A DNA stretch of 63,193 bases, filler included, from Reclinomonas americana ATCC 50394 (GCA_048213135.1; 13 parts of 13 records of this genome joined end to end with filler, not necessarily neighbours in it); one strand, 5' to 3'; numbered from the whole stretch's first letter, positions 1,854 to 60,600 are shown. A program made the numbers and translations. The notes: generated by a model not told the origin, from the letters alone.

Positions 1854-3273
1854 TGTGACTTGACTGACATCTATTTTCTCATTTGTGTGTGTGCATGTGT
1901 AGTTGCGAGGTGTGCACGGCGGGCATTCGCGGCAAGTGTCCAGTGTGTCGCGCTGAGGTCCCGGCCGGAGTGCAGCTGCAGCTCAACAGGCCGCTGATGG
2001 ATCTCATGGAGCGCTTCCGCATGGTGGAGATTGGAGGAGGAGGAGGAGGGAGCACGCCGACACCCGCACCTCAGCAGCAGCAGCATCAGTCGCGGTCTGA
2101 CGATGGTGCCTCGTCATCATCCGCGGCCGCACCTGTGGTGGCTGGTGCAGAGGGCACAGCTGCTGCTGCAGCAGCTGGAGATGGTGAAGGGGCAGTGGCG
2201 GCAGCAGCAGGTGCAGCAGGAGCAGCAGCAGAGCCTCCGCCACCACCGGCGACTGCGGGAATGGTGCTGGAGGAGGGCGTGCTGGCGTGTGCGCGGTGTG
2301 GGGAGATGTCGTCGCCGGCGCATGGAGTGTATCGGCTGGCTGCGTGTGCGGGGCATGGCGTGCATGCGGCGTGCTTGGTGGCGGCGGTGCGGAGGCTGGT
2401 GGAGAGTCAGGATATGAGTGCGCAGCTCGAGTGTGGCGCCGGCGCATGCAATAGTCGTTGCGTGGAGGTGCCCGCCTGCTCGTTTTACTCCCCCCTCACC
2501 TGTCGCTCCTGTGCGCGCAGCTATACCGTTGATCATCGTGCAGCGCGCGTTGCGGTTCGCGGAGGAGACGGCGCTGCTGGATCAGTACGACGACTTTCTC
2601 AATCGGCAGTTCGCCTCGGGAGCGCGCATCACGCCGTGTCCGGGGGTGCGTGTCATGTGTCGATAACGTTCCTCCTCTGCGTCATGACGCAGGTTCCTCA
2701 TCTTGTGTGTGCGCGTCTCTCTCTCGCAGTGCGGCAGTTTTTGTCTGCCCGAGGATGCAATCGAGTTGGAGGCCGAGTGCATGTGTGGTGTCCATTTTTG
2801 CTTCAAGTGCGGACAAGAGTGGCGCAACCGGGGTCACCGCATGCCGTGTGGCAACGACGGCTGCGAGCCGTCCATCAACCAGCGCCTCGTGCTGTGCGAC
2901 GAACACGTTGCGTTTTTTTCGTTGCACACATTTTACATGTGCGCACACATATTCACGCGATGCTGTCGAACAGCGCGCTCTTCGACACGGTGTGCCGTCC
3001 ATGCGATTGTGCCCACACTGCAGTGCCCTGCTCGGTACGCTTGCCATCCGTGCGGCTTTTCACTCCCCCCGCATCATGATTTCTCACACCTGACTGTGAT
3101 TTTCGATTGCAGACTGCCACAACCTGGTGGAAAAGCACGTCAACTGCCCCCACTGCCACGGCAGATTCTGCATATCGTGCCTACGTGCGCCACGCAGCCC
3201 CGACGATAGGAATTGGTGCATGCACAATCGCCCATGCCTGGCGGCCCCCAGGCAGCGTCTCCTCGATCAGTGA
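1854..3273 (+). CDS. N-terminal RING + RBR (RING1-IBR-RING2) protein with the catalytic Cys substituted; 5' end lies in the gap
   Basis: CEVC...CPVCR..NRPLMDL RING; RING1 (CARC..YRLAAC.GH.VH.AC); IBR (CMCGVHFCFKC); RING2 spliced as MRLCPHCSALLDCHNLVEKHVNCPHCHGRFCISCL; ends CLAAPRQRLLDQ*. Confidence 0.8.
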
Positions 3274-3381
3274 GTGATGATGTCGCGCAGGTTGCGTCGC
3301 CCGTTGTCGCTAGTTTTTCCCCAGTCTTGTGCTGGCAACCAAATATAAAGCAGCCGCTAGCCGTTTCATTTTTTCACCTCC

Positions 3382-6207
3382 TCAATCATCGTCCTCCTCT
3401 ACGTATCCGTCGTATCCGCTCTCCACGGGGAAACCGGCCCCGCGTGGCAACATGGCCGCGCGCGCCAGCCGACCCGTCGGTTCCACTTCCGGCGTCGCCC
3501 CATCGATCGCCATCTCCGACTCCTCGTCTCCATCCGCTGGTACCTCCTCTACTGGCGCATGATAGCGCGGTGCTGCCGACAGCAGCAGCACCAGGTGCTT
3601 CAGCGACAGTTGCTCGGCCATGCGTTGTCCGCCCAGCACCGCAAACCGCTCCAGTGCCGCCGCGCTGCGCTGGAAGAGAACACGCAGGCACTCCTGGATC
3701 GCCGTCTTGCTCTCAGCGTCCAGCACGGTCTGCACACAGAGCTTCTACTCAGCCACGGTGGTCGACGGCGAGATTCACACACAAAGTAATTCTTGCCTGA
3801 CCTCTCTCATGGCGGCTCGTTCCAACGAACGTGCCATGTCCGTCAGCACCGTATTATTGGCACCCTCCTCCAGTCGCGTCACCAACGCCGAGTCGCGTGT
3901 GAGTCGATTCGTGTACGCTGCACGACGAGTGAGCTTCACGATAACAGCAGAAGCATCAATACTCCACACACACACACCTTGCACAAACTGGACCCACAAC
4001 GGTTGCACGATGCTCCACTCCGCCGTCTCAGCTGCGCTTTCAGCTGCCACGCGAGTTCCCCACACGAGAAACGCATCACAAGCCAACCACAACGCGAGAT
4101 GCTCTTCCTCCGTGAGCTCGCCCACCGCCGACTCGTACACAATTGCGTGCAGCGCCAAGCACGCCAAGTGTGCAGTCACCTGAGACGCACGTGCAGAGGT
4201 CAGCGCTGCTGCAGTAAGTACAGGCACTTCCAAATGCACCCGCCTCATCCCACGGGCCGAAACGATACTCGGGCGAGGCGAGTTTGCGCGCCAGGAACAC
4301 ACTTACTGCCGTGTGGCGATTGCGGAAGGTGCTGGGCGAGGCCGTCAGCACATTGTCCAAGATGCACAGGGCGCAGGCGGTCGGCTGATCTCGGGCAAAC
4401 GCCGCTTGCACAAACTCGGCGACGCGCAGGTGACCGTGAAAGGCGATGAAGCGCTCACACGCATCGGCGTCCGTTGTGAGTTGCATGAAGAACGGCAGCA
4501 GCAGCGCGAACCTGCGCGGCAAGTATCAGCCATCTCCATTCATACCTTTTGCGCGGTACACACATCAACAAACCCGTCGCCCTTGAACTGGTGCAGAATG
4601 AGATACGGCAGCAACTCGTCCACCTCGGTCGTCAACATGTCGCTCTCGTCGGAAAAGTACACGCTAAATATTCGCAGACAGGCGAGCGTGACATCGGGGT
4701 GCGGGTCTTGCTCGCCGCGATTGAGAGCATCACGCCGCTCGCGAAAGTAGTGCAGCAGCGAGGTCGCAGACTCTTGTAATCTGCGAAGCAGGAACTGCAA
4801 CTTCTCGGCCGGCAGCGTGGTCAGCGGTCCGTCGTCCACTGCACACGGAATGATGAGTTTCTTTTTCGGTGAGGACGCATGGCAGGCATGCAGGCACGCA
4901 CTGCACAGCTCGCGAATAAACGACTCCAGGATCTGGAAGCACACCGGCAACATCACGCGCGCCTCCTCCGTCATTCTCTCTTGCTCCAGCAATACGCGAA
5001 CCTCCACATGCGTCAGGTCGAGGGCCAGCGACGCAAACGTGCCGAGTTCCTTTGCATCTCGGAGAGATGATGATGACGCGTCAACAAACAGCGATTTCGT
5101 CAGCACCTCCTCGATCATCCACGCCGACCCGGCGTACTCCATCATGACAGACAGCAGTCGGAGTGCCGAGAGACGCTGCGGATGTTCTGCGGAGGAGAGA
5201 CACAGTGCGAGTGCACGTGAGGTCCAGGTGCCACACGCTCTCTCCACGCGCACGGTTACCTGCTCGACGAATGCTGGCGAGAACAGCGTAGAGTCCACGC
5301 CGGACTTGCCTCAGCCATTCCTGCACACACACACACACACACAGATACACATAAGCGTACTGACATCAACTTGAAGCGAGAGAAAGACCAAGAGGGGACG
5401 AACCGGTCGCGGATCATCGACACCAGCAGTGGCCAATGCCAGCGTCGCCGACAGCACGTCCACAGCCGCCATCTTGACCTCGCCACCGCTCTCTGCCTTG
5501 CTCAGCACCCCAGCCAGCACCGACGCCAGTCGCCGAACCTCTGCAACGCGCATCAGCGGAACAACAACGCACCAGGGAAGAGACAACTCACGATCCGCCT
5601 CCAGCCCAGCTCTCCCCTCCACGTGCTGCAGACACCGCGAGGCCACCTGCAACAGGCCAACAGGCACCACCTCCAGTCCCGACTCGACCACGCACAGCAT
5701 GGCGAGGCGCACCAGCAACGCCGACTGCTCCACTCGCGGCACCCACTGCAGTGCACACAACACCGCCATCTCCACAATGCTCTGTGTGCGCCAACACGCA
5801 GGCAACGCCACACACAGTGCCTCCACTGCTGCCTCTGCACTCTCCACCATCTCCGCCACCGCAGCACTGCTGCTCAGCACCTCTAATGCCACCTGCGCGT
5901 ACAGTTCATCCTTGCCTGCGGAACCTGCGCACTCGCTCTCTCGCATGAGAGAAGGAGGAGGAAAAGGGGAGGAGATGGCATGTATAACGCAACGCAGAAG
6001 AGAGAGGAGGAAACGCGGAGTCACACACTCCACTGCTCGTTGCACAGAGTCGACATCAGTGGAGGCGATCACTCGGGGCACGAGGAGCAGTCCGGCGAGC
6101 TTCTCTGTGTGTTGAGAGTGTCACTAGTGTGTGTGAAAGAGAGAAAGAGAGAGAGAGAAGAAACCTTCGTTGGTGGCGCCAGAGAGAAGGCGGAAGCATT
6201 GCTCCAT
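3382..6207 (-). CDS. Neurochondrin-like HEAT/ARM protein
   Basis: The spliced N-terminus MEQCFRLLSGATNEEKLAGLLLVPRVI...VTPRFLLSLLR matches the neurochondrin N-terminal pattern. Leucine-rich helical exons and an acidic C-terminus follow. Confidence 0.7.
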
Positions 6208-6522: not shown

Positions 6523-8745
<2,223 letters not shown>

Positions 8746-10369: not shown

Positions 10370-10469
10370 NNNNNNNNNNNNNNNNNNNNNNNNNNNNNNN
10401 NNNNNNNNNNNNNTTAATTAATTAANNNNNNNNNNNNNNNNNNNNNNNNNNNNNNNNNNNNNNNNNNNN

Positions 10470-12764
10470 CCTGCCTTCCTGCCTTGGGCTGTGAGCTGAC
10501 TTTGTGTGTTCAGCAACTTGCGCATCATTCGTCACATGACGCGCGAGGAGGCCGTGGAGATTCTCACGCGTGTGGGAGCGGATAGTGGGCGCGCGCATCC
10601 GACGTTGGTGCCTGGATGCCGCGTGGAGTGCATCCGCGAAGTGGGCCCCATTCATGTCGGCGGTGTGTGCTTGTGTTGCTTTGCATGTTGGTTGTCCGCA
10701 GTCGCTTATCCGCGCACGCAGACCAAGGTACGCTGTGGGATCATGACGACTCGCCGCCGACTTGGTGCGTGCTCATATCACGGCTCTCGTGTCTTATGTC
10801 ATGTGTTAACTTTATTTGTGTGTGCGTGCGTGCGCAGCTACGTCACGTGGGATCGACAGGATTTGCAGACCGAGGCCACGCAGCCGATTCGCGCGCAACT
10901 GGCGGGCGCTCGCGCCGCCAGCGGCTACTGGTGCAACGACGCGTGAGTAGTCGTAGTAGCAGTCGCGAGATAGATGCGCATGTGCGTGTGCGTTCCGCGT
11001 GGCGACTCATGTTCTGTTTTATTGCCGTAGGGATTTGCGTGTGGTTTCACCGCCGGGTGAGGGTGCTAGTGCCGCTGGTCCCGGTCGTTTCTTGGCGAGC
11101 GGCTCGTCGGCGGCCGCTCCTCGAGTACCGGTGCGGTCGGTCGGTGCCCCCAGCGGCCAGACCTACCAGCAACTCAGCGACTACGCCGAGCACTTGCGCA
11201 ACAGCACCGGCAGTCGTGTGCGAGTGGTCGTTGCGTACGGCAACGTCCAAGTCGGCGGTATGTGGTCGACGCACATTTGTTATTTGCCTGCTGTGCACTT
11301 GTTATTGATTGTGGTTGGCAGATATCGGCAAGCTGCAGTTTGTCGACTACTTGCCGCCGGAGGACATGATTACGGAGGCTTACCCGCCACCATGGTTTGT
11401 GGTGCTTTGCAAGCAAGGTCTATATTCTGCGAGCTCACAATATTCCGTGAATTACAGCTACGTCACATTCGACCGCGAGCTCAATTCAACTGCCGAGGTT
11501 CCGCCAGCGCACGACTTGTACGACGTGAATCCGCCGCGTTCACGCGGAGCGTGGGTTCCTGTGGAGTTGCGCCGCGAAATTGTTCGATATTTTTTGATGC
11601 CGTGTTTTGATGCTCACATATAAGTGCAGGTGCCTGCAAGTGGAGAACTCGAGCCGCGCCCCACCGAACTCACCGCCGCCGCCCTCCTCATCGCGTGCGC
11701 GACCATCGCTCCCCGCCGGCGTGCAAGTGATGACCGACCAAAGTCTACAGTGTGTCGTCTGCACCGACCGCAGCGGCTCCGTCTACCGTCTGCAGTGCAC
11801 GCACGGAATACACGGCGAGTGCATTCGTGACTCCATTGGCCCTCTGGTGGCCTCGGACTCGCGTCATCCGCTCAAGTGCCAGCAGCGCGGATGCACCCAG
11901 GGTGAGTGGCTTCATTCGTGATTGAATTGAATCTCACCCTGCCATCTCACTGTTGGTCGCAGCGGTCCCGCTGGAGGTGGTGCACCATGCCGCCGTCGAG
12001 GGCGGCTTCGAGCCGGCCGCCGGACAGTACTTTGACCTGCTCAATCGTCAGTTTGTCATGAGTGGCAAGTCCAAGACGTGCCCGCGGGTGTGTTTCCACT
12101 GCTCCCTCTTGTCATCATTTCACGGCGCACTGCTCACGTTTTTTTCGTGCTTACAGTGCCGTGCATCCATCATGCCCGAGGATCCGAACCTGCGTCAGGT
12201 CACCTGCGCTCTCTGCAACACTCGGTGAGCATGAACTGCCGCCTCGTCCTCGTTGCTGGCGGTATCCTCACTCCCACACTCTGCGTCACAGTTTCTGCAT
12301 GCGCTGTCAGAGCCAGTGGCGGGATGCTGCCAACCAACAGTGGTGCGGCAACGATCAGTGTGACTCGGTCGGTCCCAACTCTCTGCTGCGCACGTGCGCC
12401 ACCAAGTCCATCTCCGGCCTTCCTGGCCAGGTGCCGATCATGCGTGCGTGCCCCTCGTGTCACTATGTGCAAGGTGTGGTGCACGACAGAGGACAATTTT
12501 GATTGTGCGTCCTCGTGTAGCTCACTCCTGTCACTGCAGAGCACTCTACGGCCTGCAAACATATGGCATGCCAGCAGTGCGGCGTCAATTACTGCTTCCG
12601 CTGTCTACTTCCACAGCGCAATGGCTTGTGGCAGTTTCGTTGACAAGAACCGCTGCTGTCATCGTCGTCCGTCCGTGTGCTAATCATTTTCCTCTCGCGC
12701 CAACAGGTGTGGTTCATTCCTCGACCCGTGCAATGTTGCACCTCGGCAAACCGTACCCGAATAA
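10470..12764 (+). CDS. RBR E3 ubiquitin ligase with at least two CPH/SH3-like modules; 5' end lies in the gap
   Basis: Modules LVPGCRVECIREVGPIHVGDQGTLW..YVTWDR and DYAEHLRNSTGSRVRVVVAYGNVQVGDIGKL..YVTFDR; RING1 (CVVC..YRLQCTHGIHGEC); IBR; RING2 MRACPSCHYVQEHSTACKHMACQQCGVNYCFRC; ends CNVAPRQTVPE*. Confidence 0.88.
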
Positions 12765-12962: not shown

Positions 12963-14563
12963 CTAGTAGAAGCCACCGCCAATTGCCCCGTATCGCCCGC
13001 GCCCGATGCCAGCAGCGCGACCTCGATCGTACAGCTGCGCAGAAATATGAGCGAGTCCACATACACACACACACACAAACGAGGGTGCCACATCATACGC
13101 AACGTCATAGAAACGCTGCACAGCACATGCATACGGTCAGTCGCACAATTAAACAAAACTCAAGAATCGCATCGCGCACGCAACATCGTCCTCGTCGTGT
13201 CGCCGCCTGCCCCCTCCCCCTCCACCCATGTGCACGGAACGCCAGTATTCGTCACGTCGCGGGGCAGAGACACACGATTCGCTGCCGCACCACGTCGAAC
13301 CCTCGCGGCGGCGCCAGCGCGATCCACATCGGAAGCAAAAGTCGGTGTCGCAGAGGCCGCAGCGACCGCGCGAGGCGCCGGGAAAGTCACTCATGCAGTA
13401 GCTCGAGCACTGCGTACAAGCGGAGGTCATTTCGGGAGAGAGAAACAGAGAGAAAACACACAGAGAGAGAGACGGAACCTGCGGGCACGCCACAATGTGC
13501 GACTGGTCAGCCCATGATTGGTTCAGCATGGCCTCGTACTCCTGCAGCAGCGCCTCTTCACCCGCTCGCAGCAGCGCATGCTGCACGGCGACCAGCGACA
13601 CGGCTTCGCAGAAACAACAACGACATAAGACGAAAAAAGCAACCGAACCAAACAGACAGCGCAGAACCACGCACGGATATCACACGAGCGATCGCCACAC
13701 TTGAGCTGCTCCGGGTGTGCCGAGTCCCTGTTGCTGGCCACCAACGCCTGCACCTTGTCCAACAAGCAGTGCGCATGGACCTCATGCTGACACGGCAGGC
13801 GGTAGCGCGGCTCATCGAGCGCCAACTCCTTGCAAATGCGACACTGGCCACTCTTTCCACGGTCAAGGAACTGCACACCGCTGTCGCCAAGCACCGGAAG
13901 CTCGCTCTCTGGCACCGACTGCCCCGGCCCACGACGCACCTGCGCGCATGCATGGCCACAGTAAGCGTGCGCGCGCGCGACAAGCCAAGTCGAGCGGACA
14001 GTACCTCTCCCGGCGGAGGCTGTGCAGGACCTGCCTCACCGCCCTCTGGTCGCACAGGAGCCGCACGAGGCACAGCGACTACAACAGGACCCTGCGGCTG
14101 TGCCTGCACAGGAGGCTGAGGCTGCGCAGGCTGAGAAGGCTGAGGAGGAGGAGGAGGCGACGGATCGACGCCTGCTGGACCGGCCCCCGAGGCCTCCACA
14201 ATGCCAAGTCGCACGGCCTCCCGTTGCACGCGCTTCAGCTGCACTATGAGATCAATCAGCGGCTGGTTCACCTCAAAGACGCCATCGACCGCGGCCTGCA
14301 CTCGCGCGCTGCTGCCTCTGCACAGAGGACACATGCTCTCCGCGGTCAGCGACTGTGAGCATTGACGACACCTGTGTGTGCACACAGAGTAGTGTCAGTG
14401 AGCAGGCACAGGCACAGGCAGAGAGACAGACAGAGAGACACAACATGCAGTGTCCCTGTCCGCAGCGGAGAAACACGGGCATTTCCGACTCTTGCTCGTC
14501 GCTGTAGTTCTGGAAGCACACAGGGCACTGTGCAAGGTTCAGCGCCTCCTCCAATACGTTCAT
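12963..14563 (-). CDS. N-terminal RING + RING1 + IBR protein lacking RING2
   Basis: MNVLEEALNLAQCPVCFQNY..CGQGH..CPLCR..NQPLIDL; RING1 CRIC..YRLPCQHEVHAHC; IBR CGLCDTDFCFRC; then a short Gly/Arg tail. The 3' exons are less certain. Confidence 0.75.
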
Positions 14564-28200: not shown

Positions 28201-29585
28201 CGTTCAGTGCGTGTCCTGCTGCAGACGTACCCACCGGGGTGCCTCGACAAGCACGAGCAGCCGTTCTGGAGCGGCACCCGCCGTTTGCCGCAGGAGATCG
28301 CTTTTGACCCGTCTGACCCTGTGCATGCCGATTTCGTTGTCGCCGCCTCCATCCTGCGCGCGCAGACTATGGTCATTGACGATTCGCTGATCCCTCGCCT
28401 GCCGCTCGCCGCCCTTCGCGAGCATGTCATCTCCATTGCCACGGCGCGTGAGAGTGCAGCTGGCGCATCGGCCGCCGAGGAGGAGGCTCTCGCTGCCTCG
28501 ATTGCCTCCGCTCTGGAGGCAGAGGCGGCCGACGAGCATGCCAGCAAGGCCGGCACGGTGTCGGCGACACGCACCCAGGGCCCGCAGCGCTCGGCTGCCG
28601 CTCGCCTTCCGGAGCTGCCGTCGTCGGAGGAGCTGCACGGGCGAGTGGTACCACCTCGCAGCCTCACGTTCGAGAAGGACGAGGTCGGCAACTGGCACGT
28701 GGAGTTTATTCAGACGGCCAGCAACCTGCGATCGCGTTGCTACCGGTATGTGTGCCTCCTTTTTTTGCGGCTTTGCTGTCGTTTACAATGTGCTCATGTA
28801 CTCGGTCTCTCCGCACAGTCTGCGTGAGGTGGACCGACTGGAGGCGCAAGTCACTGCTGGTCGCATTGTGCCGGCGCTCGTGACCACCACCGCCTTTGTC
28901 ACGGGTCTCTCAGGGTTCGAAGTGCTGAAAGTTGAGTGTTGTGCGATTCACTTTGATCGTGTTGCATGAGCACTGAAATGTGTGTGCATGCACAGTACCT
29001 GCAAGGCAAGGGTGTGGAGTGCTACATGTCCTCGTTTATCAACCTCAGTGTTCCGCAAGTGCTCGTCATGTTTGCCGACGCCTGTGGCACGGTGAGCGCG
29101 CAACTGACTTGCCTCAATGGCACCGTAAATTGCATGCTTATTCGTGTTTTTGCAGTACGATTTCGCCGGTCAAGAGTACACGGCGTGGGACTCGATCCGT
29201 GTGGACGCTGAGGCGGCGGCGACTGTGGGTTCCTTTGTTGACCATCTGGAGCGCACATACGGAGTGATTGTCGGCTCTGTGGCCGGTGCCGACAACACGT
29301 TGTGGTACATGGACATGTGGAAGGGCGACAAGTTGGCGACGGGTCGTGCCAAGACGTTGCGTAGGCTTGATGGTGACGATGGGTCGTCTTTGATGTGCTG
29401 ATGGTGATCACTCCGGAAAAAAATGCAGATTTGCCGAGTTGCAGGGCGCCAGTTCGTCGTCAGCAGCTCCGCAAAAGTGGCTGCAGCTGCACGTGTCGGT
29501 CGACCGCGGAGAGACCATGTACTCGACGCAGCCGGTGCCTGGCGAGACCGTGCGCATGCCGGCAGTCTTTGTCGCACTGTCTTGA
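25213..29585 (+). CDS. Ubiquitin-activating enzyme E1 (UBA1/UBA6 family), divergent, 19 exons
   Basis: [77 protein letters not shown]; catalytic IPVCTKKYFP..EHTIQWA (Cys codon 27795); FEKD; AGRIVPALVTTTA; C-terminal UFD-like region. Confidence 0.95.
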
Positions 29586-35456: not shown

Positions 35457-37994
35457 CTACTCTGCCACCATATCCGGCACATTCTGTGCGCCCTGTGCGT
35501 GGACGCACGAGGCGTAGCAGGAGAGTTCTCGTCCGTGGTGCAAGGCCCTGTGCAGAGGAACGCAAAAGATACGGCGCCGTTGGTTCGCTGCATGTGTGAA
35601 AGCACCTTGATGTGCACGCAACATGTCGCAGCGCCATGTGTCGGCCACCTCGGGGAACGACTCCTCGAACACGTTGGAGGCTGCGAGTCGTGAGAGTTTA
35701 GGCACTGGGAAAAATAAAGTGTGTAGCTGCCGCTGACACAAACACACACACGCACCGTCACACTTGTCGGAACCGGCGTCGTAGCGCGACCCGCCACCCA
35801 CCAGCGTGGAGCCGGTCGGGCACGAGACGCGCACAATACCAGCGGTGTCGACCTTTTCGCGAACCTACAGTTACAGCACGCTGGTTAGCACAATCGCTGC
35901 ACTTCGTGCGCAGTGAGGCGCAGCGGGTGCCGTGGATCTCACAATTTCGATCTTGCGCTCAGTCGGGAACTTGGCGCAGCGCGAGTAGCACGACGAGGTG
36001 TACGGGGACGAGCCTGAAAGGGGCACATGACAGCAAGTCAGGGCGAATCATGCGTGACAGCATCGTGTGTGCAGTTGAGAATAAGCATACCTGAGATTCC
36101 GACCTTGCACTGCCAGCCGTTGCCGTCGTCGCTAGGACGAGACTCCTGGAAGGCCACGCGTTCAGGCGACTCGCACGTGTGCATGTCTTCAGGCCCAATG
36201 GAGATGCCACCACCGAGAAGCTGTACCGAAGTGAACAAGAGTATAGAAAAAAGCAAACAAAGAAATGTAGCCGTCGCACCTGATATCCAGTCGGGCAGTT
36301 GGCAAGGCTCTCGCCATTGTCGTTCGCATCGTCTCGTGTGGTAACGGCAACTGTTCCAACCGGCAAACGGCAGCAGCGAGCAAAGCATGACCACTTGCCA
36401 CGCTTCACACCCCTGTACAAAACATGCAAGCAGCGAGTCAGTAGTCGGCATCGACAGCTCGCTATCGGAAATGACGCAACGTCTTGCATTGCCATCCGTT
36501 TTCGTACGGGCGACTCAGTCGCAACATGGATCTAGATGCACGTGCAGGAGGAAATGAGTGATCTCACGGTGGAGGGCGGTTTGCAANNNNNNNNNNNNNN
36601 NNNNNNNNNNNNNNNNNNNNNNNNNNNNNNTTAATTAATTAANNNNNNNNNNNNNNNNNNNNNNNNNNNNNNNNNNNNNNNNNNNNTCTCCCTTCGGTCC
36701 AGCCGGTCCGTTGTCACCCTTGGCGCCATTCTGTAGTAGATGCAAACATGAGCTGGGGAGCGCACTCACGTCAAGCCAGCACTATAACGCACCTTGCCAT
36801 CAGCGCCCTTGTCGCCCTTGTCACCCTTCGGTCCAGCTGGTCCGTTGTCGCCCTTGTCACCCTTGTCTCCCTTGGCTCCGTTCTGCATCGCACAGTGTGA
36901 GTCAATAAACAAGATTGAGGATGTGAGCTCGATGCCACTCGCCTTGCCATCAGCTCCGTTGTTTCCCTTGTCTCCCTTGTCACCCTTGTCACCCTTGTCT
37001 CCCTTGTCGCCCTTGGCTCCGTTCTGCGTCACACACATGCATGAGTCGATGAGCAAGACTTAGCGTGTGACTGTTGTCTCTCACCTTGCCATCGGCTCCG
37101 TTGTTTCCCTTGTCACCCTTGTCTCCCTTGTCTCCCTTGGCTCCGTTCTGCATCACACGCAAGCGTGAGTCAACCACCAGGGCTGAGCGTGTGACTGTTG
37201 TCTCTCACCTTGCCATCAGCTCCGTTGTTTCCCTTGTCTCCCTTGTCACCCTTTGGCCCGGCCGGTCCAGTCTGCAATGCAAGGGCATAGAAATGCATCA
37301 ATAACAAAGCAAGACTGAACGTGCGAGCGTGTTGTCTCTCACCTTGCCATCAGCTCCGTTGTTTCCCTTGTCTCCCTTGTCTCCCTTGTCACCCTTCGGT
37401 CCCTTGGAGCCCTTGTCCCCCTTCGGTCCCTTGGAGCCCTTGTCTCCCTTCTGCCCCTTGGAGCCCTTCTGCCCCTTGGAGCCCTTCTGCCCCTTGGAAC
37501 CCCTCTGTCCCTTGGAACCTTTGTTGCCCTTGGAGCCTTTGTTGCCTTTGGAACCGCGGTCGCCCTGCGGCCCCATGGGCAAGAACACACGAAGTCAGCG
37601 CGCGACGTCGATGCGGTGTGTGGACACAACACGTCCGTGTGGCGTACCTTGTTGTTGGTCTCTGCCAGATTCTCGGATTGATCTTCGTCGTCCTCCTCGA
37701 TGTTCTCGCTGTCGCTGACAAGCTCGTCCATTTGTTCCTGAAGATCTTCTGTCACGCACACGAGTGGTGTGCAAGTCAAGCACTGGCCTTGCACGGGCAA
37801 CTGATACTCGCTCCTCACCTTCCGCTGCATCCTCGTCCATGACGAGTTCTTGCTCACCAGTCACATCCTCAGAGAGGTCAAACCAGTCATCTTGGGCGAC
37901 GAGGACGTCAACGGTGGCTGGCTCGGAAACTGCGCATGCGCCGACATCAGTGATCAAGGGGGTTGCATGGCCTTCTGCACTGCACGAACACGCA
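35457..37994 (-). CDS. Collagen-like (Gly-X-Y) protein with a duplicated Cys-containing C-terminal module; 5' end lies in the gap
   Basis: Acidic region, then (GSK/GQK/GDK/GPK)n exons. After the gap are two CPTG...LGGG...ES.P....W.C modules. Assigning both sides of the 36587 gap to one gene is inferred from strand and position. Confidence 0.8.
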
Positions 37995-38334
37995 NNNNNN
38001 NNNNNNNNNNNNNNNNNNNNNNNNNNNNNNNNNNNNNNTTAATTAATTAANNNNNNNNNNNNNNNNNNNNNNNNNNNNNNNNNNNNNNNNNNNNCGCGAG
38101 CGGCAGACACGGGCCAGTGAGAGAGAGAGAGTTCCCGGCAATTTTGTACAATCTCGTGTTCTTGATCACGTTCATGGTCAACTGCAAGCGCGTAGCGACG
38201 ACGATCACTGCGTGTGGCTGTGCACACCGAGTCGCCAATACAGCAGACGAGACGATCAAGCGGGACGGCCCACAGCTGCACCTCGGTCTGGATCGCGGAA
38301 ATTTCAGCGCCATCAATCTTCCGTCGCACACACA

Positions 38335-41300
38335 ATGAGCGCGCCCGAGCCGCCGGCTGTTCCCGTGCGGGCTCCTCCTCCACTGCCGCCACCTCGCACA
38401 GCCAAACCCGTGGACGCCCCGAAGGAGCCGATAGCAAGTGCTGCCGAACAGCCAGTGGCAGCCACCGGACCACACCCACTGGGAGCGTGTGTGTGGAGTC
38501 TCATGGATATCATTACTCGGGCGTATCACTCCGCCGCCTCACCGACTTCGACCGGCGCACAACACGAGTTGTTGCACCAGGCCACGGAAGAGATACAGCG
38601 AGTGGCGCATGAATTGCGCATGGCGTCGCAACAGCTGCCGGCGAGCGCCGAGTGCGACAAGGCCATCATCTCTCAGGTGCTGTACTACATGGACGAGTGC
38701 ATGCGCCGCAATCGCACGTTCATCTCAAGTATGGCCACCGAAGCAGGTGTGTATGTGTGTGCGTGTGTGTGTTCGCTTCCATGCATTCTTCCTGTGAGAG
38801 ATTGAGTGTGTTCCATTGTGTTGCGTGTGTGTATGTATGTGTGTGTGTGTGTGTCTCTCTCTCTCTCTCTCCGTGACTCTCCTCTTGTGTGCGCTTTGTG
38901 CAACATCTCTGTTGTGTGAGCTGCACCACTCTGTGATGAGCACGGGGAAATGTCGGCTTGTCGTCCGGTCATCTGGAGTGACTTGGTGTTTGTTTTCCCC
39001 TTCTTGTTCTCCAGCTGCTGCGGCGGCGTCTGCTCCCGTGCTGGCTCCCCCGCCCAGCACTCGCTTTGGTACTGGCACACAGTCAGGTCAGCGGATGTTC
39101 GAGAGAGTTCTGTCTTGTTATGTGTGAGTTCTAACTGTGTGTTTGCTGCGAAGCTGGCACCTCCGGGTCGTCGCCCGTGCCCGACACTGGTTCGGTGGGT
39201 CGCACACTGTCGAATGGACAAGGTGCGTCTGCATGTGACTGACGAGTCTTTCATTTTATTGTCTGCTGATTCATGTGTTTAGGTGGATCGGCGCCTGCTG
39301 CGGGAGGTTTTTTTGCGATTCGAGTTCTGCTGTGTGTGGTTTCATTCGTTACTGACTGTCTCCGTAGGCCCGACCAGCGTCGCACCACTGCCTGGGTACC
39401 CTGATGGTGAGCCGCCGATGTCTCTGTCTCGCTCGCAGCCATTCGCTTACTTTTTTCCGGCGCAGACCCTCTAAATCGCAATGGCGCCAACGTCACACCT
39501 GGTAATGTGTCGATGAGGAACGGCGCAACGACTGCTGATGCTGCAATTGTCTCCATGGCGTCGGCTGCCATCTCTGTGGAGGGCATGGCTTCCAATCGCG
39601 CGGCACCCCCAAACGCCTCCAATGGCAGCGGTGCGTTGCGCTGGCTGCTGGTTGCGTTTTCGGCTAGCCTGTTGAATAATGTCGTGTGTCGCACAGATGC
39701 TGCGCCGCGACCCACGAACAAGGGTCTTCTGGTCCCACCGCTACCGCCAGCCACCTCTGTCAGCCAGCCCGTGGACCCTCGCGCTCAACCGCTGCAGCAA
39801 CCACCCGGCGATCAACGACGAGTGCAACGTGTGCCGACGGAGTCCGAACCCTGCCCCGTGTCTGGCCTGCCGAATCTCGGGTACGCACCCCCTCATGAGT
39901 GTCGCCGTCCCTACATGCGTTGAAATCGTGTTTCGTGTAGGAATACGTGCTTCATCAATTCGCTTCTGGAGTGTCTGCGCTTCACTCCAACCTTCCGCCA
40001 GCGCTTGGAGCGCTTTGTGACCGAAGGCAGACGGGAACTGGTGTTGGACTCGTTGCCGGCATCGTCGATCCATGCACTGCGCGTCTTGGTGGTTCGTGGT
40101 GAACTGGCTTGCATAGTTTTCCTGCATGTCGTCACCCTCGTCATATCTATCGCAGTGCTTGCACAACTTGTTCACGGCGCTTGACTCGCGCGACAACGAC
40201 ACTGTGCGGTTGCGCGTGGAGGTAGCTACCGTCTCTGCAGCTCTTCTGTCAAGTATCTTGTATTATTCACTGGAACTCGATTGCGATGCGCAGGAGCTGT
40301 TAGTGCAGACGGGCATTGCCGAAGGTCACGGTTCACACTTCCGTCTGTTTGGGTCGCGTATTGAGCAGGACGATCCTGGATGGTTCCTGACCGAGGTCTG
40401 TGCACGTCCACGCAGCACTTCTCGTGATGCAGCTGTCGCCTAAATCGCACTCTCTCTTGTTCGCCGTAGCACATTGTGCCAGCGACGGCGGGTGGGTGAC
40501 TGCGGTCACAATGTGTGTGCTTGGCAACTCGAAAGCTGATTCCCGTGTTGTTGCACAGTGTTCCCTCAAGCTGAGTTGCAGCACGTGTTCCAGTGCTCCG
40601 TCGAATTCCGCTCGACGTGTATAGTTACTGCTCTCCTGTGCCGTGTGCTGTACTCAACAAGATGTTGACGCACGCCTTTCACTGCGGCTGTCACAGAACT
40701 GCATGCGTGAACCTCGAGTCGATGCACAGCCGCAGCTCGAGGTTGTGATTGATGCGATGCAGTTGCGGCAGCCCGGGGCCATCCACGACGCGTTGCGAGC
40801 GTCCATGGTGGGAGACCGACAAATGGTCAAGAATGGAATTACGTGCCGCACGCCCAACTGCAAGTTCCAAGGCTCCAAGGTGTGTTTCGATCCATTCATT
40901 CAATCACCCTTCTCATTTCCTCTCTTTGCCATTGACTTCATGCTTCTTCTCGTTTCCCTGCGAAGGTGGACTCGATCGAGGAGTCCGTGTGGCGACTGCC
41001 GGAGAGCGCGCTGATTGTGCGCGTCGATTGGCGCTCACTGGGGAACAAGTCCTCCAAAGACTTCCCGTTGCAGCTAGACCACCAGTTCCCCTTTAATGTG
41101 GGTGGTGACCGCGTTCTGCTATCGTTGCAGTCGTTGATTGTGAGTTGACGAAGAATCGAGAAGTGTGACTCGCTGTTCGTGCTTGTTACTCATAAAGAAC
41201 AACAGCTACACTCGGGACACAGCACGGATCGCGGCCACTACATGATGATGACGCAACTACAGTGGCCAGTTGCGTTGCTGCCCTTGTCGATGAAGCAAGC

Positions 41301-41482: not shown

Positions 41483-41556
41483 AAACCACATCGGAGCGCT
41501 CCCGTCCGCGTTCTTAGTGTCCTCCTTCTCTCATCATTATAAAAAAAAAGCAAGGA

Positions 41557-43456
41557 ATGGGGAGCAGTCAGTCGCGTCCGACCTCATCCTCTGCCTCCGG
41601 CCCAGCCACCACGGTGCCTGTCTACACAAGCAACGCAGCGGCTCTGGGTGCCACCTCCGCAGCCATTGCTCAGCGCCGTCTCGCCGCTCATCCTCCTCCT
41701 CAGCAACAACAACAACAANNNNNNNNNNNNNNNNNNNNNNNNNNNNNNNNNNNNNNNNNNNNTTAATTAATTAANNNNNNNNNNNNNNNNNNNNNNNNNN
41801 NNNNNNNNNNNNNNNNNNCAGATGGTGCCAGGCACACGAGTTCGTGCGGCGCGACCAGTGGGCCCACTCCGAGTTGGAGGTGTGTCGTTCACTCACTTGT
41901 TTCTTGCTTGTATTTGTTGAGCACCAAAAGATCTGTTTTTTTCTCGTGCAGATCTCGGCTCGTTCTACTGGCGTGATCCGGAACGTGGTGCAAGGTGCGT
42001 CCTGTGCAGTCGCTTGTTTTGGTCACTCGTCCTTTGTGTGTGTGATGTCCCTCGTTCCCCTCACACGTGTCGGGAGCAGCTACGTGAGCTGGGATCGCGA
42101 CGACCTCGGTTCGATGAGTTTCTTCCCGTTCGAGGCCCTGGTCAATGGATGCCCGAACCGCCCATCGTCGGGCTACTGGGTGTTTGATGCGTGAGTGTGA
42201 TTCGGCCGTGCACTTTGACAGCGCATCGATGCTGACGCATTGTTTCATGCAGCGATATCGAGGTGGTGGCACCAACCGGTGCGTCTCGCATTGTTCTCTC
42301 ACCACTATGTTTTCGCTCACGTACACACCTCCGCTGGGTGCAGGCGAAGGTGCGGCGACTCGCTCGGAATCAATGGTGGTGGTGCCCGACACGGCCACCG
42401 GCCTCAAGTGCGAAAACTGCATGGACGACCAGAACCCAGTGACGTACCGTCTGCCGTGTGGGCACGGCTTCTGTGCCGAGTGGTGCGAAGCAGATTGAGT
42501 GCGTTTGCGGTCTCCTCGTGCGCCGACTGACTCGGGTGTGTGCTTCTGTAGTCTCGAGGAGTCACTGAAGGCGCACGTGCGTCAACAGCTGCCATCGGCG
42601 CTGCTGTGTGTGAAGAAGGGATGCAAGACGGGTGAGTGTTTTTTCTTCTTCTTCTTCTTGTATGTCGCAGGTTGTTCACATAGAGGTGCAGAGGTTCCGG
42701 TGCCGACGATTCAACACGCGGCGATTGCACGCAACTTCCGCGATGTGGAGCGCGGCTACTACGAGTTGTTGAGTCAACAGTTTGTGGCGGCGCACGTGAA
42801 GCGATGCCCGGGAGTTGCGCGCAGCTGCTCTCTCTCTCTCTCTGTGGTCATAGACACACTGCCTGACATGCAAAAAAACCCGCCACCCGCAGTGCCAGGC
42901 CATGTGCATGCCGGAGAACACCAACGACCGCGATGTGGTGTGCGGCACGTGCCACACTCGCTTCTGCGTGAGCTGTGAGCTACGTTGGCTCACGATGCCC
43001 GGCTTCCCGTCGTGCGGCAATGTGGACTGCACGCGTGCCGGGCCCAACCTCATGCTGGCCTACTGCGGCACCAAAGTTGCGTGTCGCAGGGGGAGGGAGA
43101 GGGCAACAATGGCGGAGCTGTCTTGCTGAACAATCAAAAAAATTTGCAGTTCACGTATGGCATTGCCGAGGAGCACGGTCAGGTGCCAGTGATGCGAGCG
43201 TGCCCGCGGTGTTTCACTATTCAAGGTGCAGTGTGCATTTGTCTTGCGCGCCCGTTAGCGATATATTGCGCGGTGCTCACGATGAGTGGCAGAGCACGCC
43301 GAGGCCTGCAAGCACATGAAGTGCCAGAAGTGCCTCTGCGAGTACTGTTTCCGGTGCTTGTCGGTGCGTGAGAACGATCAGACCCCGTGGCCAGCCATTT
43401 GTGGTCACTGGAACACGCCGTGCCCGATTGCGCCGCGGCAAGTGGTGCCGGAGTGA
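41557..43456 (+). CDS. RBR E3 ligase with a CPH/SH3-like module and MGSSQS N-terminus, spanning a gap
   Basis: MVPGTRVRAARPVGPLRVGDLG..SYVSWDR; RING1 CENC..YRLPCGHGFCAEC; IBR; RING2 MRACPRCFTIQEHAEACKHMKCQKCLCEYCFRC; ends CPIAPRQVVPE*. The link to the first exon across the gap is inferred. Confidence 0.85.
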
Positions 43457-46913: not shown

Positions 46914-47013
46914 NNNNNNNNNNNNNNNNNNNNNNNNNNNNNNNNNNNNNNNNNNNNTTAATTAATTAANNNNNNNNNNNNNNNNNNNNNNNNNNNNNNN
47001 NNNNNNNNNNNNN

Positions 47014-47591: not shown

Positions 47592-49635
47592 ATGGCGGGA
47601 AGCTCTGTGGAAGGCGGTGGTTCGTATGTGCCTCTCACTCCTTCGCACAGAGACGCACACATGCACGCACATGCCTGTGTGTGCCTTTGTGCGTGCGAGT
47701 GTGGCCGACATTTCCACGCTCACACACTCTCTTCTCCTGCTCAGAAAACGTGAATGCGCTGGTGATGGACTGGGGCACCACGAGTGTGCGCGGTGGCTAT
47801 GCTGGCGAGGACTCACCAAAGGCCTTCATTCCGTCGGTGCGTGTGAGTGTCTTGTGCATGAATTGTGTGTGTGTGTTGTCATGCAAACTCGTGTGAGACA
47901 ACACGCAGCTGTGTGGTGTGACGATGGAGGGCGGCGAGGACATGGAGGTCGATGGTGAGTGAACACGTGTGTGTATGCCAGCACTTGCTCTTTCTCACAT
48001 GCGCGCCACGCAGGCTCGGGAAGTGGTGCGGCGCGGAGACGAAAGTATCACACCGGGCATCACCAGCTGGCACATCGCAAGCCACACATGGAGATCCTCA
48101 GTCCATTCAAAGACGGACTCGGTGCGTGCCTCCTGCTGCTGTGTGTGTGTGTGTGTGCACAAAGAGTGCGTGTTGTTCATTGCATGACAACGCGCAGTGG
48201 ACGATTGGGATGCATTCGAGCGATTGTTTGATTACACGTTCCGTGACTGTCTGCACGCGAACCCGCCCGACTATGGTGTCATGCTGTCAGAGGTGCCGTA
48301 CAACGCGGCGGCGCAGCGGGAGACGCTGGCCGAGTTGGTGTTTGAGAAGTTTGGCTTTGCATTCGGCTTTGTGGCCAAGAGCCCCGTGCTGACGGCGTTG
48401 CGTGGCTTTCCTCGTCGCCCGCCACTGCAGCGTGCATGCTCATGAGTCGTCGTACGTGCAGCTTCTCGCTCGGGAAGTCGTCGGGCTTGGTGGTGGATGT
48501 GGGCGCGTCGGGCACCGTGGTCACGCCCGTGACCGACGGCTTTGCGCTGACCAGTGGCATTGTGCGCAACTCGTTTGGTGGTGATGCGCTCACCGCACTG
48601 TACCAGCAGTCGGTGGAAGAGCAGGGTGTGCAGGTGCGGCCGGCGTACATGTTGCGGAAACGCAGGGAACAGGATCGAGTGCTGGTGGAGGAGCTCAATC
48701 TGCCCGACACGGCACCGTCGTTCCACAACTATGAAACCTTTGTTGCGCTTGCGTGCTTGCACACGTCACGAATGCTGCTGTCAGTGTGTGTGACGACCCT
48801 TGTGTGTGCTCTCTGCGCAGAGAATTTTCAACGATTTGAAGGAGAGTGTGTCGATGGTGTCGGAGGTGCCATTCGATGAAGAGTTACGTGCGTTGCTTCC
48901 TCTCGCAAACGCATCGCTTGGCTCACCCCTCCAGCACCACAGGGCCAACCGCAACATCCCGGGAGCGCAATATGAGCTGCCGGACGGCTCCAAGATCACC
49001 GTCGGCACCGAACGCTTCTCTATTCCCGAGCAGCTGTTCTTGCCCAGCGCACGAATGGTGTGAACTGATGTGTTGCTCGATTTTTTTTATTGCCGTCGCT
49101 CACACCTGCGTGTCATCGCAGGCGCGAGACCGTGGTCTCGACATTGACATGGGCTCGGAGACGCCACACGCGTTGCATTTGCTGGCGTTTATGGCGCTCA
49201 ACAAGACCGACAGCGACAAGCGGTGAGTGCAGTTGACTGGCCACTCCACTCCCCTTCAGTTTTTCTCACCGTGGTGGTGGTGTGAGCAGCAAGGACGTAC
49301 AGCGCGACGTCATCCTTACCGGCGGCTCCTCGATGATGCGCAATCTGCAAAAGCGATTCGAGAAGGAACTGGCGGCCATGCCCATGGTGCGCGTGTGCAC
49401 AGGCGTGTGCGCCATTCTCATCCGTCCACTTCGCACTGACTGCTGTGTGCGTGCATAGGCCAACAAGGTCAAGCTGACACCGATTCCCTCGGGTCCCGGT
49501 GCCGATTCGAGGCGATGCAGTGCGTGGATCGGTGGCTCCATTCTGGCCTCACTCGGCAACTTCCAGAGCATGTGGATCGGCAAGCGCGAGTACGAGGAGA
49601 TTGGTGCGTCTGTGGTCAACAAGAAGTGTCCTTGA
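47592..49635 (+). CDS. ARP4: Nuclear actin-related protein 4 (ACTL6/BAF53 family), 11 exons
   Basis: [67 protein letters not shown]...KKCP*. Confidence 0.92.
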
Positions 49636-57440: not shown

Positions 57441-57602
57441 GTTTTCTGCACAACTCGTCATTTCTCCGACTGATTGATTTCCCACACGCGAGCAACAAAC
57501 CGTTACAAACAGTGGCGCCAAAAATCGTGTTGTTTGATTTTGGAGGAGAAAAGCAAACCTTTTTCGCACGTTTCTCGTCACACACACACGCACGCGCACA
57601 GC

Positions 57603-60600
57603 ATGGCAGCCGCTGTTGAGTTGACGCACAAGTGCGTGACTGCGCTGGTGCGCAAGTTGCCTCCTCGTGTGGAAGAGATGGAGGAGGAGGACGGCGCCAC
57701 ACTTGCGGAAGCACGTCGTCTGTTCAGTGCTCTACACAAGCGACAGGTGCCTCCATCACTTCTCTCTCTTTGTTTGTGTGTGTGTATGTGTGTTGGAGAA
57801 GAGGCGGCAATGTGACTCGTGTGTGTGCGTCTCGCGCTGAGCAGAAGAGTCGATCGGATGACTTCAATCTGCTGGAGCAGCTGGATCGCCTCCCAGTGCG
57901 ATCGTTGGCCGAGCTCTGGCTCCTCTCCTCGTTCGTGGCAGCTGATGCGTTTTCGCGTCTCACGGAGCCCATTATGGACGCCGATGAGGCGATCTCTGGT
58001 GTGTGTCATATGCTCTCTCTCTCTCTCTCTCGATTTACACAACACCCACTCCTGTCTTTACCAACTGGCTGGTGTGTAGAGCTGATGGACGAGAGCCGAA
58101 GCGCTGTTCTCTGTGTGACCACCCTCGCCTTGCGTCACATTGCGGGCACAGCGGAGAAGAGTGTGAACCCGATTGCGGCCGAACCATTCTTCTTGCTGGC
58201 GCAGCGCCTTCATGGTGCGTGTTCTTGTGGCAGCCTACGATTTGTGCGCACGATGGTATGCCCACGTGTTGCTGACTGGCTTCTCCTCTACGCCACCGCA
58301 GACAATCTGCTGCAGTTGGCCGAGCACCGTGANNNNNNNNNNNNNNNNNNNNNNNNNNNNNNNNNNNNNNNNNNNNTTAATTAATTAANNNNNNNNNNNN
58401 NNNNNNNNNNNNNNNNNNNNNNNNNNNNNNNNGTTCCACGCCAATAAGCTCGTTGCCGGAGTCGATGCGATGCTCCTCCGGCTCTACGAGCCAATCCTCT
58501 TCCGCTCACTGAAGGTGGCCAATAATGCAGGTGCGCTTTCGATGTCGTCCTCCTGTGCCTCAGACGAGATCACGCGTTCTGATCACCGTTTTCCTGGCAG
58601 TGCGACGCAATGCGGCGCACTTGTTCTTCGATGCGTTCCCGTTGCAGAACCCGGAGGTGCACCAGGCCGAGTTCCAGGAAATGATTCAGCTGCAATTCAA
58701 CGCGATCGAAGAGCTGCTCTCCGACTCATGCCCCGATGTGCGCGCCGTCGCCGTGCAGGGCGTGTGCCACATTATCAAGGTGGAGTGGCTGAGCGCGCGC
58801 ACAAACACACACACACACATGGGCAGGTTGTGGAGTAGGCTGACACCGGCGGTTTTTTTGTGTTTTTGCGTTTGTAGGTATACTTTGACCTTGTACCACT
58901 CGCCACCGTACAACACTTGCTGCGCCGCCTGGTCCGCGACTTGGCCTTCGACTCCAACTCGGTGGGCGTGCGTGTCGCCGTCTTTGAGGGCCTGTCAGCT
59001 GTGCTGGACAACCACTTGGCGCACCCGGTGCTGCAAAGCATGTTGCCACGCTTGGCGCCACTGATGCAAGACCGGTCGGAGCGTGTGCGTCGTGCTTTTG
59101 CCGACCTGTTGTACCGCGTCAAGAGCATCCGCAACATCCGCTACTTTGACATTGTGCCGCTGGATCACATCTTTGCGGCACTCGTGGCCAATGCTGGAAA
59201 CCGCGTTGGCAAGCGTCTGTGCGGTCTCCTGCTCAACTCGTTCTTCCCCTACAACAAGAATCAGTCGATGCAGCTCTCGCGGTGTGCCGACTTTGTACGA
59301 GTGAGTACCCCCGGAGGCGCACTTCATGTACCCCCGCACACGGTCTCACACCATCCTGTACAGAGGAACGGGCCAGCTGCAGTGGCATTCTACTCACGCA
59401 TTCCCGAACTGGCCCCGGTGGAGGCGGTCACCGATTTTGTCATCAGCATCTCCAAGTACTTGGATCACTGCCTGGCCAAGCAACCCGCTGGACCACCCGC
59501 TGTCGACGTGCTGGCGGAGACCGACAAGGAGAATGTCGGCAAGTCGGCCTCAGAAGCACCGAAGAAACGGCAAAAGAAGGCCGCTACGACGGTGTTGGCC
59601 GACGTGCCGGTCGAGGGCGACGATGATGGCGACGACGGCGAGCCAAAAGCGTTGCGCTGCCTCGCCATTGAGAAATGCCCCCACAGTCGATGCTGTCGAT
59701 GCTGAGTCCCTTTTGCCTGCGCAGAAACCGCAAGAGGCAAAAGAAGAGCGAACGGGAAAAGGACGAGAGACCAACGCAGGACGACATGGTCACCGACTCG
59801 ACACACTCGGACGACAAGCGCGAAATCTGCAGCCTCACATCGCCCGAGTTGCAACAGGCACGTGTTTCTACCACTTCAAAGCACGAATGCCACCACACTT
59901 ATCCTCTCTCCGCTCTTTTCCCCGCAGGTTCTCCAAATCCAGTCCGTACTCCTGCGCGGCATCGTTCCCGCACTGCGCGAGGAGAAGAATCGCGAGCTGC
60001 TGGCCAAGGTGGTGGCCAGGCTCAACTACAACGACATTCTGCAACGCGTGGCCGCAGATCCGACCATTCCCGCCCAGGTGCGCGGACTCGTGTTGGAAAC
60101 GTGCGCGTTTGCCGGCGAGGACGACCGAGAGGAGGTGGCCACCGAGTGTGCTCGCTCACTGGTCAAGGTACGCGCGCTTCGTTGGAGTGAGTGCACTCGA
60201 CACTTGGGAGTCGCGCGTGTGTGTGACTCGGTGTGCAGGTGTGTGGCGAGGACGGCTCGGAAAGTCTGTGTGAATCGAGTGTGCATTTGCTTGTGCGCTC
60301 CGGCCACGGCAAGGAGGTGGAATCGTTGTTGAAGGCGCTGCTTTGCGACCAATTTTCGGCGTTGAGCGGCGTGGCGCGGAACGAAGTCGGCAAGTGGGAT
60401 GCAGCACGCAAAATCCGTGCCGCCACCCTCGTGCTCGACTGTATTTCGGTATGTTGTTCGGTTCTGGCAGAGCAGTGTCAGTACAGTGCACTCACTCGGT
60501 GTTCGCAGTCCATGCGTGACGTCCCGGCGAGCTTTGCGCCGACACTGGCACGCATCAAGGGCTTGGTGCAGGATCTCATCACGCAGCCGACACTCTGGCA

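Follow-up and report, generated by a model that had tools for sequence, protein, structure and literature searches.

A putative second class of frequent 5′ splice sites, displaced by one base, in DNA from Reclinomonas americana

The DNA examined here, called the window throughout, is a stretch of 63,193 nucleotides (nt) from Reclinomonas americana ATCC 50394 (GCA_048213135.1), in which 13 contigs of 1.3 to 16 kb each are strung together. Its content of guanine plus cytosine is about 57%, and its genes are packed and have short introns (median 68 nt). Two of these genes, coding for an E1 ubiquitin-activating enzyme and for an ARP4-like protein, were curated intron by intron. Their introns and those modelled elsewhere in the window appear to use two kinds of 5′ splice sites (donors). 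One is the canonical site, as in G|GTGCGT. The other, which we call shifted, is mostly C|GTTGCGT, A|GTTGCGT or T|GTTGCGT. The original prediction had proposed such one-base-shifted donors as a major class that is tied to exons not ending in G. At the DNA level the shifted class is well supported.

The E1 gene (25213..29585, plus strand) has 18 introns, six of them of the shifted class, and leaves 1042 codons open. Pfam recognised ThiF, E1_FCCH, E1_4HB, UBA_E1_SCCH and E1_UFD on its exons. The ARP4 or ACTL6A-like gene (47592..49635, plus strand) has ten introns, three of them shifted, and 434 open codons. Here, Pfam recognised Actin, and the best relative with a solved structure was actin-like protein 6A. 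The first ARP4 donor is 47620 (G|GTTCGT) and not 47624, which is needed to have the ATG in frame. Both curated models are open only with the shifted donors. In these 28 introns the proposed partition was reproduced: GTT[GA][CA]G followed nine of the ten exons that do not end in G and none of the 18 that do (hypergeometric p about 1.4e-6, our own arithmetic). The sole non-G exon end without a shifted donor is at 27340 (A|GTTCGT). As to intron phase, 15 of the 18 E1 introns are of phase 0, compared with 77 of the 156 introns modelled across the window.

A search with an E1 exon yielded seven homologs with 28-41% identity. These, and 16 homologs of ARP4, were aligned to the DNA by a protein-to-genome aligner that was blind to donors, i.e. 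any GT..AG pair was permitted. Candidate introns also received a scan score. Two matrices for the donor, restricted to its intron side, entered it together with branch, acceptor and length, and the bases of the exons had no part in it. In ARP4 the donor C|GTTGCGT at 48397..48403 was placed with 16/16 homologs (score 18.9), T|GTTGCGC at 48742..48748 with 15/16 and A|GTTACGT at 48883..48889 with 10/16; for the last, 48892 was chosen with three homologs and 48859 with one. In E1, C|GTTGCGT at 26338..26344 (also in the curated model) and T|GTTGCGT at 26964..26970 (score 14.8; not in the final shifted list) were each placed with 6/7 homologs, C|GTTGCGT at 26556..26562 with 5/7 (score 14.1) and A|GTTGAGT at 28931..28937 with 4/7 (score 13.9). 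T|GTTGCGC at 25953..25959 was placed with 2/7 (score 12.9), and the open frame and the gene models contain it as well. The donor of the last E1 intron, C|GTTGCGT at 29356..29362, is set by the open frame and the gene models and appeared in 0/7 alignments; the C-terminus of E1 aligns poorly. Thus, the claim that the shifted donors of both genes are demanded by the frame held in the curated models, and the donor-blind alignments added support from homology. The same aligner invented introns in the poorly conserved part of a long E1 exon (28558-28614, 5/7 homologs). Its placements are therefore evidence, not proof.

The motif stands out in the raw sequence. On both strands together GTTGCGT occurred 38 times, whereas a third-order model predicted 16.2 copies. 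This enrichment is comparable to that of GGTGCGT (37 vs 17.2 expected); GGTGAGT reached 25 vs 9.6. GTTGAGT was not enriched (8 vs 8.1). When the third base of GTNGCGT was varied, T alone was enriched (A 2 vs 3.7, C 20 vs 15.9, G 19 vs 25.2, T 38 vs 16.2). A less frequent pair behaved in parallel, GTTTCGT (13 vs 5.8) and GGTTCGT (10 vs 4.8). The base preceding the GTTGCGT copies was C in 17, A in ten, T in six and G in five cases. By our own tally 23 of the 38 copies are predicted or curated donors, i.e. 21 plus 26964 and 8163. A GT was present at all 17 plus-strand coordinates of the original prediction and at its minus-strand site 8163, yet several of its motif labels were wrong: 25953, 42814 and 48742 read GTTGCGC, 12634 reads GTTTCGT and 54402 reads GTTCCGT. 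Site 28931 is GTTGAGT, 48883 is GTTACGT, and the remaining cited shifted sites are GTTGCGT. The two exceptions to the class that it had named, G|GTTGCGT at 54967 and C|GTGAGT at 10943, are present.

For a view across the window, introns were scanned for and genes were modelled. A donor-blind gene finder was set aside because weak codon bias made it too noisy. In its first form the intron scan strayed into (GT)n repeats where canonical sites were concerned, and donors inside GTGTGT runs were then barred. The scan used no coding information and was compared with five shuffles. Shifted-class candidates numbered 28 at a score of at least 12 and 20 at a score of at least 14, vs 2.0 and 0.4 per shuffle, respectively. 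All candidates with a score of at least 12 came to 77 vs 7.6 per shuffle. Frame-aware gene models, which likewise left exon bases unscored, then comprised 156 introns, 119 canonical and 37 shifted. The rule that shifted donors rarely follow a G extended to the whole window: G was at position -1 in 3/37 shifted and 79/119 canonical sites (Fisher 1.5e-10). Among the shifted sites, 54967, 53537 (-) and 32253 (-) are those preceded by G. The converse rule, by which nine of ten non-G exon ends are shifted, was confined to E1 and ARP4; across the window 34 of 74 such ends are shifted and 40 are canonical. Some of these 40 are model errors, and on account of errors in the gene models G at -1 is underestimated among canonical sites. 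If retained, 29 of the 37 predicted shifted introns would break the frame and eight would keep it open. For 25 of the 37 no canonical-like donor/acceptor pair that keeps the frame lies within 30 nt, and 12 have some alternative. Among the modelled canonical donors GTGCGT and GTGAGT prevail. GTAAGT is nearly missing from the window (GGTAAGT 0 vs 1.0 expected), and AA occupies +3,+4 in one of 119 canonical donors.

The exon side of the sites indicated how the two classes are related. Position -1 of the shifted sites (A13 C13 G3 T8) had the composition of position -2 in canonical sites with G at -1 (A29 C21 G10 T19; p=0.76), and shifted -2 likewise agreed with canonical -3 (p=0.37). When -1 was compared with -1 the classes differed (p=9e-10). 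The exon-side composition thus agreed with the proposed displacement by one base and not with the canonical alignment, and the parallel enrichment of GTTGCGT with GGTGCGT and of GTTTCGT with GGTTCGT is what a canonical motif moved by one base would yield. Both classes fit one core, G-[G/T]-T-G-C-G-T, in which the cut would precede the first GT. The intron side of the shifted sites is rigid, with GC at +4,+5 in 32/37; at the corresponding canonical positions +3,+4, GC was found in 35 and GA in 29 of 119. At the 3′ end the classes are alike. The branch motifs CTCAC, CTGAC and CTCAT are common to both, the median distance from branch to AG is 19 nt in shifted and 21 nt in canonical introns, and the CAG acceptor, the median length of 68 nt and the composition are the same; C is at -3 in 36/37 shifted introns. 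Shifted and canonical introns are mixed inside the same genes. GT-AG ends together with the restored frames of E1 (1042 codons) and ARP4 (434 codons) are features of U2-type introns.

Three simple origins of the motif were rejected. A sequencing or assembly error, in which GGT was read as GTT, fails because in the curated models the frame is kept only if the exon stops short of the G. Were the cut one base further downstream and the 3′ end shifted to match, a G would be expected to open the next exon; by our tally it does so in about 11/37 cases, a share not above that predicted by base composition. Common descent in the manner of introners was dismissed on reading the sequences, as the introns share nothing past +7.

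The other shifted sites predicted by the gene models are given here with strand and scan score. In RBR-type genes C|GTTGCGT was predicted at 2457..2463 (+; 17.3) and at 2907..2913 (+; 14.7, without a canonical-like alternative), A|GTTGCGC at 42814..42820 (+; 7.2) and A|GTTGCGT at 43076..43082 (+; 6.1), the last with an intron of 156 nt and an uncertain acceptor. Searching solved structures with the RBR exons beside 42814 and 43076 gave no usable information. C|GTTGCGT was predicted in a neurochondrin-like gene at 5987..5993 (-; 13.8, frame open if retained) and in a UCH gene at 22087..22093 (-; 17.5) and 22194..22200 (-; 19.1). A WD40 gene contains G|GTTGCGT at 53531..53537 (-; 14.5, frame open if retained), T|GTTGCGT at 53765..53771 (-; 14.9) and A|GTTGCGT at 53958..53964 (-; 16.9), and in a WD40-type gene T|GTTTCGT was predicted at 50465..50471 (-; 10.3). 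A HEAT-repeat gene has C|GTTGCGC at 59651..59657 (+; 17.0). No alternative pair was found for C|GTTGCGT at 13097..13103 (-; 19.5; within 30 nt), T|GTTGCGT at 13178..13184 (-; 15.7) and A|GTTGCGT at 41269..41275 (+; 13.8). Further sites are C|GTTGCGT at 36474..36480 (-; 16.3) and 55572..55578 (-; 17.5), T|GTTGCGT at 32412..32418 (-; 12.0), G|GTTGAGT at 32247..32253 (-; 9.1) and A|GTTGCGC at 11566..11572 (+; 13.4). A|GTTGCGC at 30661..30667 (-; 14.3) has a recent duplicate, A|GTTGCGC at 24312..24318 (-); the copies are 95% alike and, stemming from one duplication, do not count as independent sites. The following are weak: T|GTTGCGT at 35616..35622 (-; 7.2), A|GTTGCGC at 50640..50646 (-; below 6), 56519..56525 (-; 6.3) and 57015..57021 (-; below 6, frame open if retained), A|GTTGCGT at 872..878 (-; intron of 162 nt with canonical-like alternatives) and T|GTTTCGT at 416..422 (-; many alternatives).

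Single sites in three further places were examined individually. The C|GTTGCGT donor at 8157..8163 (-) ends a UBE2H-like exon (8165-8269, -), which aligns to UBE2H up to the motif: the match runs end to end with UBE2H residues 41-75 (...SIGFMNKIF) and stops exactly at 8163 (-). The downstream exon lies off the contig. The next E2 motif, which we take to be HPN, is lost when the frame is read through past 8163 (-). A gene for an RBBP9-like serine hydrolase (54351..55260, plus strand) has five introns and 193 codons, and this frame is open only if the donors include 54402 and 54967. The former, T|GTTCCGT at 54402..54408, is shifted-like; it belongs to the open 193-codon model and is absent from the automatic models. 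The latter, G|GTTGCGT at 54967..54973 (score 19.9), starts an intron of 60 nt. The exon before it (54772-54966) aligns to RBBP9 residues 76-139, and in the read-through DNA the RBBP9 homology stops at ...DDPL, right at the motif. The frame stays open if this intron is retained. Exon 1 of this gene has 17 residues, exon 2 gave no match, and short RBBP9-like exons found nothing when searched alone. A|GTTTCGT at 12634..12640 (+) is a candidate donor that is absent from the gene models. Its candidate intron of 73 nt has a CTAAT branch and a CAG acceptor, and reading through it meets a stop after three codons.

The contigs of the window are separated by twelve identical joints, each composed of 44 N, TTAATTAATTAA (a six-frame stop linker) and another 44 N. 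They lie at 1754-1853, 7670-7769, 10370-10469, 17869-17968, 20141-20240, 36587-36686, 37995-38094, 41719-41818, 46914-47013, 52915-53014, 58333-58432 and 60683-60782. Because the contigs were joined by a linker, genes are cut at the joints and linkage of genes across a joint is not demonstrated. Genes of the ubiquitin system are numerous on these unlinked contigs. Besides E1 there are three E2 genes (8745, -; 6803-7305, -; 45461-46224, +), two UCH genes (15847, +; 21282-22886, -) and several RBR/IBR and RING genes (2414, +; 11631, +; 12560, +; 13601, -; 34126, +; 41822, +). This abundance may reflect the ordering of the contigs or a real expansion. A gene with collagen triple-helix repeats lies at 36766-37731 (-). 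Its exons repeatedly end in ggcaag|GTGAGAGAC, all in phase 0. Long microsatellites of (CT)n, (CTT)n, (GT)n and (GTGC)n are found at contig ends (7770-8110, -; 47014-47040; 60783-60820; other contig ends) and, just past the donor, inside many introns. They mislead donor prediction.

The E1 gene is flanked on both sides by recent segmental duplications with 73-99% identity depending on the block (23505-24477 vs 29635-30826 and 22835-23465 vs 24578-25178; copies of introns and the region upstream of E1 are included). Where the E1-flanking duplication is 95-99% identical it is too young for divergence to mark the exon-intron borders. The closest proteins in large libraries are distant. In a full HMMER scan identity to the relatives of ARP4 did not exceed 56% within the matched stretch and was 49% for the best full-length relative (P0009). 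A word-based search with an ARP4 exon and a neurochondrin exon found no relatives. Metagenome loci L001-L004 (about 3.4 kb) showed 29-39% identity, and an Atlas search returned the ThiF family only. An Rfam scan of the window yielded no family at the gathering threshold, and no gene for a small nuclear RNA (snRNA) at threshold or at E<=1. The only matches at E<=1 were two to isrG, a bacterial small RNA, at 23027-23181 (+; 37 bits) and 2109-2189 (+; 19 bits). They are far below the gathering score of 100 and were taken as chance matches on simple sequence.

How may these sites be explained? We lean towards real U2-type GT-AG introns which possess a second frequent 5′ splice site, H|GUUGCGU, formed by displacing the canonical G|GUGCGU by one base. 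GUUGCGC, GUUUCGU, GUUACGU and GUUGAGU are rarer forms of it. In both classes U1 would pair alike with a core of seven bases, G-[G/U]-U-G-C-G-U. On shifted sites the register would move by one base, and G+1 would replace the usual G at the exon end. Later GU-specific steps, involving U6, U5 and Prp8, would fix the cut at the GU. From the DNA we infer that U1 is the reader, that its register is shifted and not bulged, and that the RNA is cut at the GU.

Several observations weigh against this displaced-site explanation. Pairing was predicted for a canonical U1, with its 5′ end taken from Tan et al. 2016 (PMC4856993); the U1 of this organism may differ. The duplexes of the shifted sites were very weak, with a mean of -1.2 kcal/mol. 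Canonical sites reached -7.4 if G was at -1 and -3.0 if it was not, and GTNNGT sites reached -6.5. Moreover, canonical U1 would favour C|GUUGAGU (-3.8 kcal/mol) over C|GUUGCGU (-0.6 kcal/mol), the opposite of the observed enrichment. The counts across the window come from our own gene finder, in which the matrix for shifted donors was seeded with the motif of the original prediction, and the 3′ model common to both classes favours 3′ features that are alike. First-round gene models missed 25402 and 26964 in E1, of which 26964 was read through, and the final models put donors into (GT)n runs at 26092 and 47843. Two of the 37 shifted sites (24318 and 30667) are copies of one recent duplication. 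The homolog alignments did not place 29356 at all and 25953 just twice in seven. Finally, GT 7-mers were counted in the interval from 50 to 95 nt before the 250 top-ranking branch-plus-acceptor sites, after removal of the training sites. This hypothesis-free test was modest, though independent: GTTGCGT was found 11 times vs 3.5 (p=9e-4) and ranked third among GT 7-mers.

Given the weak pairing, the lack of GUUGAGU enrichment and the prevalent GC at +4,+5, an ordinary U1 that simply moves by one base fails to account for the motif. Consequently, the organism would have either a U1 with a different 5′ end, or an additional U1, or some other factor that recognises UGCGU. Judged from sequence, a changed or second reader of the shifted sites is plausible. 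For the altered U1/U6 recognition proposed in the original prediction, the weak pairing and the preference of canonical U1 for GUUGAGU are an indirect hint. More tentatively, and with a rather low probability, the lineage may use two registers routinely. One would be served by the usual pairing and the other, in about a quarter of the introns, by a remodelled U1 or by a second U1 paralogue with full complementarity to GUUGCGU; GU-specific catalytic steps would set the cut.

Of the competing explanations the one that survives best, although we consider it unlikely, is a bulge. The introns would be real, U1 and perhaps U6 would pair normally with G+1 and U+2, the U at +2 or +3 would be bulged, and GCGU would pair as usual. 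GUUGCGU can be drawn with such a bulged U. The G+1:C8 pair, which is lost in the shifted register, would be retained, and in Tan et al. 2016 (PMC4856993) the +2/+3 bulge is an accepted human register. Yet a bulge leaves -1 opposite C9 of U1, so that G should be preferred there. G was instead depleted to 3/37, vs 79/119 in canonical sites, and -1 had the composition of canonical -2, which disfavours a bulge. Enrichment of T alone as the extra base is demanded by a shift and not by a bulge, and with canonical U1 no stable bulged pairing was predicted for C|GUUGCGU (-0.6 kcal/mol).

We give somewhat less credit still to a separate reader, i.e. a second U1 paralogue or a remodelled single U1. Its 5′ end would match GUUGCGU at every base, and the class would be read through perfect pairing instead of weakly, by an ordinary U1 in a shifted register. 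The far greater rigidity of the shifted class, seen in its GC at +4,+5, is in favour of such a reader, as is the preference for GCG over GAG, the reverse of the prediction for canonical U1. Expressed variant U1 snRNAs, which exist in humans (PMC3561869, PMC10870369), also speak for it. The 5′ end of U1 is, however, nearly invariant across eukaryotes, GC-rich donors such as GTGCGT occur in other GC-rich genomes with an ordinary U1, and the scan of the window found no snRNA gene.

An artefact of modelling is very unlikely. In that case a different cause would account for the enrichment of GTTGCGT, most of these positions would not be donors, and either splicing would start elsewhere or the segments would stay in the transcript. 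It is true that the shifted junctions are read from DNA, that the motif served as a seed for the gene finder, that several shifted sites have low scan scores, and that the frame survives retention in 8/37 cases and finds some canonical-like alternative in 12/37. On the other hand, the donor-blind alignments arrived at precisely these GTs in both curated genes, a branch and a CAG follow the motif at 55-80 nt far more often than in shuffles (28 vs 2.0), and 23 of its 38 copies are predicted or curated donors.

A class of introns similar to those of the minor spliceosome, with a rigid 5′ motif of its own, is hardly credible: like U12-type introns the shifted ones have such a motif and no preference for G at the exon end, yet U12-type introns have the consensus RTATCCTT at the 5′ site and TCCTTAAC as a branch close to the 3′ end, whereas here the donors are GTTGCGT and branch, distance, acceptor, length and composition match the major class (with the 3′ model shared), and with both classes mixed within genes a separate minor-type system is disfavoured.

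The displaced-site explanation, which we prefer, has relatives among known systems. Human shifted-register sites (Roca and Krainer 2009, as described in PMC4856993) keep the cut at GU and carry the motif one base further in. The sites described here share with them the cut at GU, an exon that ends in a base other than G, and a G+1 that stands in for the G which usually closes the exon. They differ from them in frequency: the human sites are described there as rare exceptions, and here 37/156 modelled and 9/28 curated introns are shifted. Of 201,541 human 5′ splice sites, 1.5% fall into the validated noncanonical registers taken together (Tan et al. 2016, PMC4856993), and Table 3 of that paper gives 68 predicted human sites for the +2/+3 bulge. 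A human oligonucleotide tested there continues with AAGU in the shifted register, whereas the core found here has GCGU, a poor partner for canonical U1. With respect to the +2/+3 bulge, GUU followed by the canonical +3..+6 block can likewise be drawn with one bulged U, but that register, as presented there, keeps the pairing at -1, and G at -1 is depleted here. Two balanced classes of major 5′ splice sites, strong on the exon side or on the intron side, have been described (bioRxiv 10.1101/2022.04.05.487178). In the scheme as outlined there, sites without the exon-end G carry a stronger and more rigid motif on the intron side, as do the shifted sites; it has no extra base, and here the block on the intron side is displaced by one nucleotide. 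For a subset of unusual 5′ splice sites with its own reader the human variant U1 snRNAs (PMC3561869, PMC10870369) would be a precedent. In a full-text literature search, which left subscription journals and closed supplements outside, GTTGCGT/GUUGCGU and GTTGAGT/GUUGAGU were not reported as splice motifs, nor was a shifted class reported for a whole organism. No human variant U1 is known that serves one intron in four.

Shifted and bulged U1 registers have so far been known, in the account given in PMC4856993, only as rare exceptions in human genes. An organism in which about one intron in four carries one and the same shifted motif would offer a natural setting in which to study how the cut site is uncoupled from U1 pairing. 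It would show whether the 5′ end of U1 can evolve and how the exon-end G is traded off against the motif on the intron side. About one in four introns of this genome would be mis-modelled by gene finders whose training donors were of the form GTRNGT. If two registers are indeed in routine use, this would be a natural major spliceosome with two readers or with a remodelled U1.

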